Positions 15,128 through 21,583 of a DNA stretch of 64,000 nt are shown here, in pieces (position 1 is the first letter of the stretch; the number at the start of each line of letters is the position of its first letter). Made by a program: the position numbers and the translations under genes. The DNA lies in the IMG/VR virus record IMGVR_UViG_3300017721_001026, positions 64,001-128,000 of that record; one strand, 5' to 3'. The notes beneath the pieces are model-generated. The model was not told where the DNA came from, searched no databases, and saw only the letters and a program-made list of their open reading frames with translations. Source of the stretch: a virus. Lineage: Duplodnaviria; Caudoviricetes.

Positions 15128-16474
15128 TTACTTATCGTTTTTATCTAGAACTTCTTTTAATGCAGCAAACCATTTAACTGCCTTATCTAGAGGCATTCCA
15201 TTACCATCGTCTCTCTCATCATCTGTAAGAGTAGTGTATAGTTTTTCTGGATCAATTTCATCCATGAGTGACAAAATGTCATCAACACTATATTCTTGAC
15301 CACTCTCAATTTCTTGTCTCTCTATACTTTCTTTAGCAAGTTTAGATAGTTGACTTGGATCAGTGTTTTCTGCCTTATGTGATTCAAGAAGTTTTGCTCT
15401 TTGCACTTCTCTATACTCTTTCTCTGCCCTATCAAATTCTCTCTCTAATGCATCATCAAGTTCATCATATGTCTGTTCAATATCCATTTTCTTAAGAACT
15501 TCTTCATGAGATCTCATGATAATATCCATCTCATGATCAACTTCCTGTTGGAATTTTTTCTGTTCCAACTCATGATCAAGTTTCATTTTTTCTCTCTCAC
15601 GCACAACTTCTTCCATTGTAAATTGTGCATCACCCCATGCAGTTTCAAGTCCTTGCTTTTGAAGTTCAAGTTCCATTCTAGAAATTTCAATTTGTTCTAG
15701 TTCAAGTTCACGAACTTTATCATCATTTGCTCTCTTAAGTTCTTTTTCTTGCTCATCTTCAAGAATGTTCTTTTCGAGAAGTTCTGTTTCTCTTTCCATC
15801 TTATCACGTTCCATCTGAAGCAGTTCTTGATACTGCTTTCTTTCCTCAATAAATTCTTCCTTTTCTTTTTCAAAACTATGATAAAGTTCATCATACTTTT
15901 TAGAAAGTTCTAAAGACTTTTTCTGAAAGAATTCATCTGCTTTTTGTTGTTCAAGTGCTGCAACTTCTCTTTCTCTTGCTGCTTTTTCTCTCTCAAGTTC
16001 CATCAGAGTGGTTTGCCTATCATAGACACTTTTCTGTTCTTCTTTAGATTTTAGATCGTAAAGTTTTTCTTTCTCACTACGAAGTTCTTCATTTTGCTTT
16101 TGAAGATCATTAATGATGACAAGTTGTGCTTCTTTCTCAAGTTTATCAATGTTCAATTCTTCAATCTGCTTAGAAAGATTTTCCTCTTCTTCTAATGCCG
16201 CAGCAAGTTCTCTCTGCTCATAGATTGACAAGAATGTATTAAAATAGTCTAGATATGGTTGAACAATAGTATCAAATTCATCTTCACTAAAAATTTTATT
16301 TGGTACAGGATCTTCACCAATGACATCTTCATATTCTAATTCACCTCTGCCATCTCTCCACTGAATTGCATGGACAGTTTCATCATCAAAGTCCCAAGGT
16401 GCATTATCCTCAAGATCAACAGTCTTACCATCTACAATAATTTTTTTATCTTCTGGGATGATGGAAATTTTCAT
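15128..16474 (-). CDS. fibre-associated HAIQW-domain protein with a long acidic coiled coil (putative chaperone)
   Basis: ~85-aa N-terminal domain (IIPEDKKIIVDG..VHAIQW) plus ~300 aa of E/K/Q/L-rich helix; hand count 129 D+E vs 69 K+R. Confidence 0.55.
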   Translation of the reverse strand: MKISIIPEDKKIIVDGKTVDLEDNAPWDFDDETVHAIQWRDGRGELEYEDVIGEDPVPNKIFSEDEFDTIVQPYLDYFNTFLSIYEQRELAAALEEEENLSKQIEELNIDKLEKEAQLVIINDLQKQNEELRSEKEKLYDLKSKEEQKSVYDRQTTLMELEREKAAREREVAALEQQKADEFFQKKSLELSKKYDELYHSFEKEKEEFIEERKQYQELLQMERDKMERETELLEKNILEDEQEKELKRANDDKVRELELEQIEISRMELELQKQGLETAWGDAQFTMEEVVREREKMKLDHELEQKKFQQEVDHEMDIIMRSHEEVLKKMDIEQTYDELDDALEREFDRAEKEYREVQRAKLLESHKAENTDPSQLSKLAKESIERQEIESGQEYSVDDILSLMDEIDPEKLYTTLTDDERDDGNGMPLDKAVKWFAALKEVLDKNDK

Positions 16475-16876: not shown

Positions 16877-16884
16877 TATTTATT
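16877..16884 (-). promoter_or_regulatory. T4-type late promoter
   Basis: AATAAATA within ATAAATAATACAC, a 13-mer identical to the one at 18731-18743. Confidence 0.6.
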
Positions 16885-16893
16885 ATAGCACGA

Positions 16894-18156
16894 TCAATCC
16901 AAACTGCAAAGAATCACATCAATATATTGAACTCTCAATGGTGATAATCCTGCTGTAAATGATATTGGAGATCCAGTAAATGGATGAACGTGTGCTTGAC
17001 CACCACCAGTTGATGATGTTGCAGGTGCTTGAGTATTATTTGCCCTGATAGTACCACCAGGACTCAAAGTTCTCAATGGGAATCTTATACTCGTAACTTG
17101 AGGATATCTTTGAGGTGTACGATATGCTCTTGGTTGTCTATAGGATGCAGGATTTCTTTGAGGAACTGTTATTCTAAACGGAATATCCACTCGGAAACCA
17201 TTTCTCTGCCTGAATGAATATCTCACTCTAAATGTTCTCGGTTGCCTCTGTCTAAAATCTCTTCTCTGCCTACCATTTCTGGGTTGTCTAAAGTTACGAG
17301 GTTGACGGAAAGATCTTCTCTGTCTTCCAGATACAGGTCTTCGAGTTTGCCTTCTTTGCCTATAACTTGTATTTCTAGGTTGTCTTCTTACTGCTCTTCT
17401 TGGGAATCTATCGTTTCTTCTACGTCTCCCTCCTCTTCTTCTTGGTTCTCTATCATTCCTTCTTACACCAACACGGAAAGAGTTTGGAATTGGTCTTCTA
17501 CTTCTTCCACCACCCTGACGGAAACTAAATGGTGCTCTAGATCTTAATGGAACACGGAAAGGAACAGGAACTCTGAAAGTAAATGGATTTCTAGAACGTG
17601 TTTGATATCTAACTCTAAAGTTTCTTGGTTGTCTCTGTCTAAGTGGAACTCTCTGCCTTTGTGGTTGTCTATAGTTAAGAGGTTGTCTTACATTTGTTGG
17701 TTGTCTAAAATCGACACTAACTCTAGTGTCTAGAACAATTCTAGTTGATGCTCTAATATTATATCCACGTGGTTGTCTATTATTTTGTCTAAATGGTGAA
17801 GAACCTTCGGAAGATCTATATGAATTAGGATTACTTCCAGTGTTATGTGTATGTGCAGGAAGTTGATCTGTTGTTAATGTTGTTGGTCCAGTGCTTCCTG
17901 AAAGAGTTGAAGAAACAGTGCTGTCTGCACCAGAATCATTAAATAATGTAGTGAAACTTACAGATCCAGCAGATGATCCACCAGTACCATCAACAACTCT
18001 AAGTGATTTATCGTTTTCTGATATATCTTTAGTCCAACCAGTTGGTGCTGCCGCCTGGTAAAATACCATCGTAGAGGATTGAGGAATAATCCCGTAAAAA
18101 CTATTTAACTGACTGCCACCACCAAACTGAATTCCGTCTGCCTTTAAAATTGACAT
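16894..18156 (-). CDS. short tail-fibre/collar-type protein with an Arg-rich hexapeptide-repeat insert
   Basis: FYQAAAPTGW collar motif, LTTDQLPAHTH ... GGGQAHVH, YIDVILC; ~75 Arg in residues 121-371. Confidence 0.7.
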   Translation of the reverse strand: MSILKADGIQFGGGSQLNSFYGIIPQSSTMVFYQAAAPTGWTKDISENDKSLRVVDGTGGSSAGSVSFTTLFNDSGADSTVSSTLSGSTGPTTLTTDQLPAHTHNTGSNPNSYRSSEGSSPFRQNNRQPRGYNIRASTRIVLDTRVSVDFRQPTNVRQPLNYRQPQRQRVPLRQRQPRNFRVRYQTRSRNPFTFRVPVPFRVPLRSRAPFSFRQGGGRSRRPIPNSFRVGVRRNDREPRRRGGRRRRNDRFPRRAVRRQPRNTSYRQRRQTRRPVSGRQRRSFRQPRNFRQPRNGRQRRDFRQRQPRTFRVRYSFRQRNGFRVDIPFRITVPQRNPASYRQPRAYRTPQRYPQVTSIRFPLRTLSPGGTIRANNTQAPATSSTGGGQAHVHPFTGSPISFTAGLSPLRVQYIDVILCSLD

Positions 18157-18166
18157 ATCTTATACC

Positions 18167-18703
18167 TCAACTAAAACGACAGAGAATGACATCAATATAT
18201 TGAACTCTCAGATCAATACTTCCAGAATATGGTGATGCTCCACCAGAAAATGGGTGAGTATGTGATGTTCCACCACCAGTTGGTGATGTTGCAGGTGCAT
18301 CAGAATTTACAGCACGTCCACCAATACCAGGAGATCCAGGACTTACGTTAACTTGAGAACCCGCATTGTGTGTATGTCCAGGAATTTGCTGAGTGGTCAA
18401 TGTTGTTCCTCCAACAGTACCAACAGCAGTTACAGTTCCACTAATTGGACGAGTTGATGTGGGAAATATGGTAGAGAATGGTTGTCCACCAGGACCAGCA
18501 GTTCCACCAGAACCAAATCCTCCACCAGAACCAGATACAACTCTAAGTGCTTTATTATTATGAGTGGTTACTTGTGCCCATCCACTGGGTGCTGATGGTT
18601 GATAAAACACTGCTACACTATTCTGAGGAATAATGCCATACTTAGAGTTTAAAACAGTATTATCAAGTCCAAATTGTATACCACTCGTTTGCAGAATAGA
18701 CAT
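18167..18703 (-). CDS. short tail-fibre/collar-type protein (paralogue without the insert)
   Basis: FYQPSAPSGW, LTTQQIPGHTH, GGGTSHTH, LRVQYIDVILC. Confidence 0.75.
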   Translation of the reverse strand: MSILQTSGIQFGLDNTVLNSKYGIIPQNSVAVFYQPSAPSGWAQVTTHNNKALRVVSGSGGGFGSGGTAGPGGQPFSTIFPTSTRPISGTVTAVGTVGGTTLTTQQIPGHTHNAGSQVNVSPGSPGIGGRAVNSDAPATSPTGGGTSHTHPFSGGASPYSGSIDLRVQYIDVILCRFS

Positions 18704-21355: not shown

Positions 21356-21583
21356 CTATTTCTTTTTTTGTTTCTTAAGGTGTCTTTTTTGCAATTTTAA
21401 CACTGCTGACAATGCTGTGTCAAAGTTACGATATAATGTTCCTGTTGGTTTTCCTTCAATGATAGTAGTGTATTTCTTTTTCTTACCTGCTATCGGAATC
21501 ACAACAAAATTACCATCATCAGAACAAAATTGCTTACGATATACAGATTGTAAGATTGATGAGTTAGTGTATGTATACTTCAT
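21356..21583 (-). CDS. hypothetical basic protein
   Basis: ORF track. Confidence 0.65.
   Translation of the reverse strand: MKYTYTNSSILQSVYRKQFCSDDGNFVVIPIAGKKKKYTTIIEGKPTGTLYRNFDTALSAVLKLQKRHLKKQKKK

Follow-up and report, generated by a model that had tools for sequence, protein, structure and literature searches.

The acidic protein P0001 (448 amino acids, aa) is encoded on the minus strand, at 15128..16474, of a 64,000-nucleotide stretch of DNA from a marine cyanophage (the window; positions 64,001 to 128,000 of the IMG/VR record IMGVR_UViG_3300017721_001026). Its sequence kinship and gene context support reading it as a fibre-accessory protein, encoded two genes downstream of a fibre-tip gene with an arginine-rich insert in a conserved cassette. 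The protein joins an N-terminal domain with the motif HAIQW to one very long charged helix, and in this long form it accompanies fibre tips that carry the insert. We give an even chance to the idea that P0001 is a fibre-assembly helper whose added acidic helix and C-terminal domain go along with the polycationic insert, shield it and perhaps act as its template, with the neutralising role itself being plausible but unproven. An earlier reading of the DNA letters alone (the original prediction) had proposed a sheath or ruler chaperone for this insert. The kinship to fibre-accessory chaperones has since been found in the N-domain and the cassette and the shielding is plausible, but the length match expected of a ruler is not there.

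Anatomy of P0001 and kinship of its N-domain

P0001 is a real and conserved gene, as judged by its translation, composition and full-length homologues. The open reading frame (ORF) runs from 16474 down to 15128, on the minus strand, a correction to the original prediction. In a word-indexed search across 5.8 billion proteins we found 48 homologue clusters with 35-81% identity, all of 440-470 aa and all aligned end to end. The nearest relative from an isolate is ORF247 of the Synechococcus phage S-SCSM1 (Kyanoviridae), with 71% identity, and P0001 is the only HAIQW gene in the 153.8-kb source record. The protein contains 85 E, 44 D, 46 K and 23 R, which gives 129 acidic and 69 basic residues and a net charge of -60, exactly as had been counted by hand in the original prediction.

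An AlphaFold2 (AF2) model built from a 27-sequence alignment divides the protein into four parts. The first is the HAIQW beta domain (residues 1-71; 16262..16474, minus; net -14), which is also recovered by profile search and hhalign. It has the HAIQW motif itself at residues 35-39, beta strands within residues 2-63 and a short helix at 64-70, and when modelled on its own it reaches a predicted local distance difference test score (pLDDT) of 91. This is followed by a single continuous charged helix of 295 aa (residues 72-366; 15377..16261, minus; net -35; pLDDT about 90), which at 1.5 A per residue would be about 44 nm long and agrees with the 45 nm estimated before. A disordered acidic linker (residues 367-397; 15284..15376, minus; net -3), with pLDDT below 50 and many indels in the alignment, then leads to a small C-terminal domain (residues 398-448; 15131..15283, minus; net -8), recognized from the model and the alignment, with three predicted helices within 398-447. 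The HAIQW domain with some 300 aa of helix was thus anticipated correctly, and it was the linker and the domain of about 50 aa behind it that had been missed.

These parts are not equally conserved. The mean pairwise identity within the family is 75% for the N-domain, 54% for the first half of the helix and 60% for the C-domain. In the second half of the helix it falls to 27%, yet the length (130-150 aa) and the acidity (-14 to -29) of this half are kept. The C-domain carries the motif DPEKLYT.LT...FP..KAVKWF.ALK, in which P409, L416, T417, K431, A432, W435, F436, L439 and K440 are invariant in the alignment. The motif is also present in distant long forms of 420-434 aa, and long forms of 472-491 aa have a looser version of it together with a C-terminal extension.

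The nature of the helix can be judged from its periodicity. Bulky hydrophobic residues (LIVMFYW) make up 29% of it and charged residues 46%, and the conserved hydrophobic positions recur with a period of 3.6 residues (family z = 5.7), while the power at 3.5 residues is no higher than in shuffled sequences (z about 0). The heptad registers drift along the helix, with a best occupancy of the a and d positions of 0.38-0.62. Given this periodicity and the drifting registers, a canonical heptad coiled coil is not supported, and the coiled-coil label of the original prediction is better replaced by that of a long charged amphipathic helix, which may sit in a straight or hendecad-type bundle. Opposite charges spaced i,i+4 are enriched (44 pairs compared with 28.9 +/- 4.4 in shuffles). 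Together with the high content of charged residues and the single isolated rod of the AF2 model this partly resembles the ER/K single alpha-helix domains. Unlike typical ER/K helices, P0001 has far more bulky hydrophobics than usual, arranged in a 3.6-residue stripe, and its charge is strongly negative rather than balanced.

The N-domain connects P0001 to proteins of known type. An exhaustive profile search with this domain found 153 clusters, mostly short phage proteins. Among the 145 matches listed, 126 were shorter than 200 aa and ten were 420-491 aa long, with the bulk at 60-200 aa, which agrees with the statement in the original prediction that HAIQW proteins adjoining fibres are short. 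When 144 representatives were compared with Pfam, 19 matched PF16778 (Phage_tail_APC), 8 matched DUF4376, one matched DUF7936 and no other family was hit. PHROG 4912, annotated 'tail fiber assembly', was matched by 30 of these 144, and all annotated PHROG matches were tail-fibre or fibre-assembly families. A direct hhalign comparison of the P0001 family with the PF16778-bearing chaperones gave 98% probability and an E-value of 1.5e-13 over residues 1-52. By these profile comparisons the N-domain of P0001 is homologous to the N-domain of tail-fibre assembly chaperones. PF16778 and DUF4376, the C-terminal domains of that chaperone class, were not found in P0001 itself.

Searches by structure were less informative. 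A sequence profile search of the PDB returned only a condensin match at the level of chance (E = 0.06), and the N-domain model had no clear match among PDB folds (best E = 0.5 with Foldseek, best Z = 3.7 in a wide VIA-align search). In BFVD the same model matched only uncharacterised phage homologues, and a feature search of the ESM Atlas gave no usable match. Tandem repeats of the HAIQW domain also occur, as indicated by P0106 (1122 aa), in which its profile matches 11 separate stretches.

The insert-bearing fibre tip and its cassette

The presumed client of P0001 is P0002 (16894..18156, minus), a gp12-like fibre-tip protein of 420 aa with an arginine-rich insert of about 284 aa that is defined by alignment with P0004. 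The latter (18167..18703, minus) is a 178-aa insert-less paralogue of the fibre tip, identified by this same alignment and by a weak sequence match (E = 5e-4) to the tail fibre in PDB entry 9QGO. P0002 contains 78 R and has a net charge of +63, with +68 for the insert alone, which confirms the highly charged partner that the original prediction had described. The insert is placed between two HxH motifs and both halves of the gp12-like tip are kept. To our knowledge it is among the most arginine-rich long segments seen in phage structural-type proteins. At its midpoint (residues about 240-262; 17380-17450, minus) lies the near-mirror motif NDR-EPRRR-GG-RRRR-NDR-FPRR, a sequence pattern consistent with a hairpin that folds back at GG.

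Between the two genes lies that of P0003 (16471..16857, minus), a 128-aa protein with four cysteines and an acidic C-terminal tail whose stop is overlapped by the start of P0001. Alignment of its family shows C9, C16, C21, C43 and an AVESFRNE motif to be invariant, and it probably binds metal. Relatives are encoded in at least 590 viral stretches of IMG/VR, and no Pfam or PHROG family was matched.

The succession of fibre, Cys protein and HAIQW protein is the same in the window, in S-SCSM1, whose ORF244-247 have the same gene order as the window cluster, and in 55 distinct cassettes. The trio also recurs in unrelated phage contigs, where a fibre of 160 to 1274 aa ending in ...VQY[IV]D.I.C is followed by a 4-Cys protein of about 110 aa and then by a short HAIQW protein. 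This recurrence suggests that P0003 and P0001 are paired accessories to gp12-like fibre tips, in keeping with a role in fibre assembly. One viral contig (L047:832-8031) holds two cassettes side by side. A 1274-aa fibre comes first, followed by the Cys protein and a HAIQW chaperone of 164 aa; a short fibre of 176 aa and two ORFs then lead on to a second pair in which the HAIQW gene precedes that of the Cys protein, reversing the usual order.

The long form and the insert are linked by their co-occurrence in the 55 cassettes, with a long form defined as at least 420 aa. All 31 fibres with an arginine-rich insert are followed by a HAIQW protein of 436-493 aa, and behind each of the 20 complete fibres that lack the insert this protein has 81-297 aa. 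For two further long helpers the upstream fibre was cut by the end of the contig, which makes them uninformative. A long form beside an insert-less fibre, the counterexample named at the outset, was looked for and seen in 0/20 insert-less cassettes. The pattern extends to distant long forms (N-domain E-values of about 1e-9 to 1e-6), which have the same gene order behind insert-bearing fibres of 434-514 aa. Additionally, the acidic tail of the 4-Cys protein (about 25 aa) is present only in insert-bearing cassettes. Further members of the 4-Cys family are encoded at L043:4675-5004 and L052:5945-6274.

Charge also covaries across the cassettes. The charge of the insert correlates with that of the helper (r = 0.84, n = 18), as does the net charge of the whole fibre with the net charge of the helper (r = 0.81, n = 25). 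The correlation persists in phylogenetically independent contrasts, for which the tree was made from trait-free columns (r = 0.64, p about 0.003), with 13/18 contrasts of the same sign. The acidity of the 4-Cys protein also follows the charge of the fibre or insert (r = 0.85-0.86), and the downstream oxygenase follows the insert less well (r = 0.49). The charges of fibre, Cys protein and helper add up to between -20 and +7. Of the correlations of length and charge with the insert that the original prediction had asked for, that of charge is therefore present. That of length is not, since the coil is fixed at about 300-308 aa while the inserts span 271 to 364 aa, so that the two do not covary. 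An apparent correlation of insert length with whole-protein length was rejected, as it is due only to the longer C-terminal extension of a distant clade, and one coil value of 358 aa (L069) reflects a misplaced C-terminal boundary.

HAIQW proteins of intermediate length (258-307 aa; L090:3836-4645, L110:3839-4615 and P0094) have a helical segment of about 100 aa followed by an extremely acidic low-complexity tail. Their net charge reaches -72 and they adjoin two neutral short fibre paralogues. In evolution they may have been steps towards the long form.

The proposed helper and its alternatives

If P0001 is a fibre-assembly helper, the following course of events can be proposed. The HAIQW beta domain, a module common to short fibre-assembly chaperones, would join the 4-Cys protein in serving the gp12-like tip. 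In this cyanomyovirus lineage an arginine-rich insert of about 280-360 aa would have been added to the tip protein, an acidic amphipathic helix of about 295 residues and a small C-terminal domain, likewise acidic, to the helper, and an acidic tail to the Cys protein. The helix of about 44 nm would then lie along the nascent polycationic insert with 1:1 stoichiometry, supplying it with counter-charge and a straight hydrophobic stripe. It would prevent the insert from binding nucleic acids or aggregating during fibre trimerisation and would leave before the virion is complete. The anatomy, the kinship of the N-domain, the cassette, the strict co-occurrence and the covariation of charge are observed; the binding, its geometry, its stoichiometry and the release are what we infer here. 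Co-folding the full-length arginine-rich fibre with P0001 in two runs without controls gave an ipSAE score of 0.00, which speaks neither for nor against binding.

Several observations weigh against this proposal. One significant problem is that acidity is a trait of the HAIQW family as a whole, and what is specific to the insert-bearing lineage is length. This becomes apparent when looking at the HAIQW proteins beside neutral insert-less fibres of 170-190 aa, which have net charges of -54 (258 aa), -47 (269 aa), -43 (178 aa) and -25 to -33 (about 150 aa). Per residue this is -0.17 to -0.24, compared with -0.13 in P0001, so a net charge of -60 is roughly what would be expected at its length. 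The near-cancelling of the +68 insert noted in the original prediction therefore stands for the whole protein only; the helix alone, at -35, offsets about half of it, and the acidity is not specific to the insert. The fixed length of the coil speaks against the proposal as well, and in the clade of 472-493 aa the fibre and helper charges vary without following each other (+37/-52, +45/-22 and +40/-26). Another concern is the number of independent origins. The N-domain tree counted six state changes, but it is poorly resolved and contains mis-scored fragments, so the approximately unbiased (AU) test was used instead. On the N-domain data the AU test did not reject monophyly of the long forms (p = 0.177), and all long forms share the C-terminal motif, which suggests that the long architecture probably arose once. 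The co-occurrence then counts as about one evolutionary event and has little statistical weight. Additionally, P0001 and its C-terminal 56 aa had no match in Pfam or PHROG even at E <= 10 and its N-domain had no usable one, and among the promoter-like sites upstream of the cluster the best is of sigma-70 type and not of the T4-type late kind. Finally, the structural role of the arginine-insert fibre on the particle is unproven, as its homologue in S-SCSM1 (ORF245) lacks a virion label.

Several of these observations would fit if P0001 were an ordinary fibre-assembly chaperone with a helix that acts as an oligomerisation rod or spacer and has no specific electrostatic relation to the insert. 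The helix might then hold three N-domains in register in a trimeric bundle, and the charge match would be the product of acidic composition and length. The short and intermediate HAIQW proteins that are equally or more acidic beside neutral fibres, the independence of helix length from insert length and the lack of charge tracking in the clade of 472-493 aa are all in its favor, and known chaperones do trimerise through helical domains (PMC9608196). However, such a rod leaves unexplained why the long forms in the 31 cassettes are always paired with an insert-bearing fibre, why the contrasts still vary in the compensating direction and why the Cys protein acquired its acidic tail in the same lineage, and the 3.6-residue periodicity with shifting registers speaks against a classical supercoiled bundle. 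We consider this explanation, the main rival, possible but rather unlikely.

A further alternative is that P0001 is a structural partner whose helix is retained on the arginine-rich hairpin of the virion, forming a sheath or half of a two-part host-contact device, until it is displaced at the cell surface. The near neutral charge sum of the trio, the conserved length of the helix, which suggests a fixed structure, and the conserved acidic C-domain, which might form a cap over the RRRGGRRRR apex halfway along the insert, would all suit such a partner. The proteome of S-SCSM1 leans the other way. The record of this phage labels its 45 proteins detected by mass spectrometry as 'virion protein' (PMC9602691). 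In this one tryptic proteome, which comes from a relative, ORF244, the homologue of P0004, has the label and ORF245, ORF246 and ORF247 do not. Since ORF247 is rich in tryptic sites, its missing label favors a non-structural helper; for the arginine-rich fibre a missing label tells us nothing, as the insert would be cut to pieces by trypsin. The rest of the superfamily also consists of assembly chaperones, and we regard a retained sheath as improbable.

Least likely of all, and in our view very improbable, is that there is no fibre device and the arginine-rich protein acts inside the infected cell, for example by binding host nucleic acids or, from within, the envelope, with the helix protein as its inhibitor, nucleic-acid mimic or storage partner: the missing virion labels of both ORF245 and ORF247 and the setting of the cluster among oxygenase and helicase genes, with a sigma-70-like promoter and no late motif nearby, would fit this, but P0002 retains both gp12-like tip halves with their HxH motifs, its insert-less paralogue is a virion protein in S-SCSM1, both accessory proteins belong to a cassette that elsewhere follows large genuine tail fibres, and promoter-like sites in the window are no commoner than in shuffled sequence.

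A more specific version of the assembly-helper proposal goes further than the evidence we have described, and we offer it as a doubtful one. The helix could act in stoichiometric amounts as a template chaperone or a sheath that is later removed, with the HAIQW domain anchoring it to the gp12-like tip and the rod running along the full 44 nm or so of a folded-back poly-arginine hairpin, with the C-domain capping the RRRGGRRRR apex and the charges of the two co-tuned. If true, this would be an electrostatic ruler-and-shield mechanism, which has so far been described for no phage fibre.

Neighbouring genes and known systems

The cluster is transcribed from the minus strand in the order of four ORFs, P0004, P0002, P0003, P0001, a 453-aa protein with an oxygenase domain and further oxygenases. 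Two of the four opening ORFs (21354-18740, minus) match Pfam families of 2-oxoglutarate-Fe(II) (2OG-Fe(II)) oxygenases. The 453-aa protein directly after P0001 (13760..15121, minus) has a 2OG-Fe(II) oxygenase domain (PF13640, E = 8e-16). Homologues of about 390-500 aa also follow the HAIQW gene in insert-less cassettes (L089:4297-5496, L090:4685-5896 and L110:4631-5797), so the arginine-rich insert alone is unlikely to be the substrate. A sigma-70-like site (TTGACA-18-TAAAAT with TG) is found at 21394-21423 (minus), upstream of the first ORF of the cluster, which encodes a 222-aa oxygenase-family protein, and another (TTTGCA-17-TATAAT with TG) at 16882-16910 (minus), upstream of the P0003 gene. 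The T4-type late promoter motif TATAAATA was not found near the cluster and is not enriched across the window. In S-SCSM1 the P0002 homologue ORF245 was called T4 gp12-like by its authors via HHpred, and this HHpred row was the only entry when the supplement was searched for names and accessions of ORF244-247.

The findings define two widespread phage families that had no name, the HAIQW N-domain with its 153 clusters and the 4-Cys partner. Both accompany gp12-like fibre tips, which should allow better annotation of host-recognition modules in cyanophages. Should the rod indeed shield the polycation or act as its template, this would be a new solution to the problem of making an extreme polycation in a cytoplasm filled with nucleic acids, and P0001 could help to express such fibres in other hosts.

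The closest relatives of P0001 are the chaperones with PF16778, DUF4376 or PHROG 4912. They share the homologous HAIQW beta domain at the N-terminus and the gene position just downstream of the fibre tip, usually after the 4-Cys protein. P0001 is 3-4 times longer than typical members and, unlike the PF16778 and DUF4376 chaperones, carries the acidic helix, the linker and a different C-domain of about 50 aa. Tail-fibre chaperones are usually small and act only at the fibre tip. T4 gp57A, a small acidic helical oligomeric chaperone of about 80 aa that is needed for the gp12, gp34 and gp37 fibres, lacks a beta domain and assists more than one fibre. The parallel is that its client gp12 resembles the tip of P0002, although no gp57A homology turned up in the Pfam and PHROG scans. 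The proposed logic of a polyanion that shields a polycation during assembly is also that of nucleoplasmin and prothymosin-alpha, acidic chaperones of the polycationic histones with largely disordered acidic tracts. These are unrelated to P0001 in sequence, fold and biology, and P0001 is predicted to be a rigid helix.

A solved structural precedent for a dedicated fibre chaperone of beta and helical parts comes from the freshwater myocyanophage Pam3, where the tail-fibre chaperone gp25 embraces the distal fibre gp24 with 3:3 stoichiometry, as seen by cryo-electron microscopy (PMC9608196). Like P0001, gp25 combines an N-terminal beta domain with a C-terminal helical part and is a dedicated helper adjoining its fibre gene. 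No match to P0001 in sequence or fold was found, the PDB fold searches with the N-domain described above giving nothing clear, and unlike P0001 gp25 lacks a long charged rod, just as its fibre lacks a polycationic insert. The chaperone family is recognizable in P0001, while its architecture and its pairing with an arginine-rich fibre insert are undescribed in the libraries and literature searched. Compared with these known systems, P0001 appears as a chaperone-family protein lengthened into a 44-nm acidic rod that is strictly associated with an arginine-rich fibre tip.

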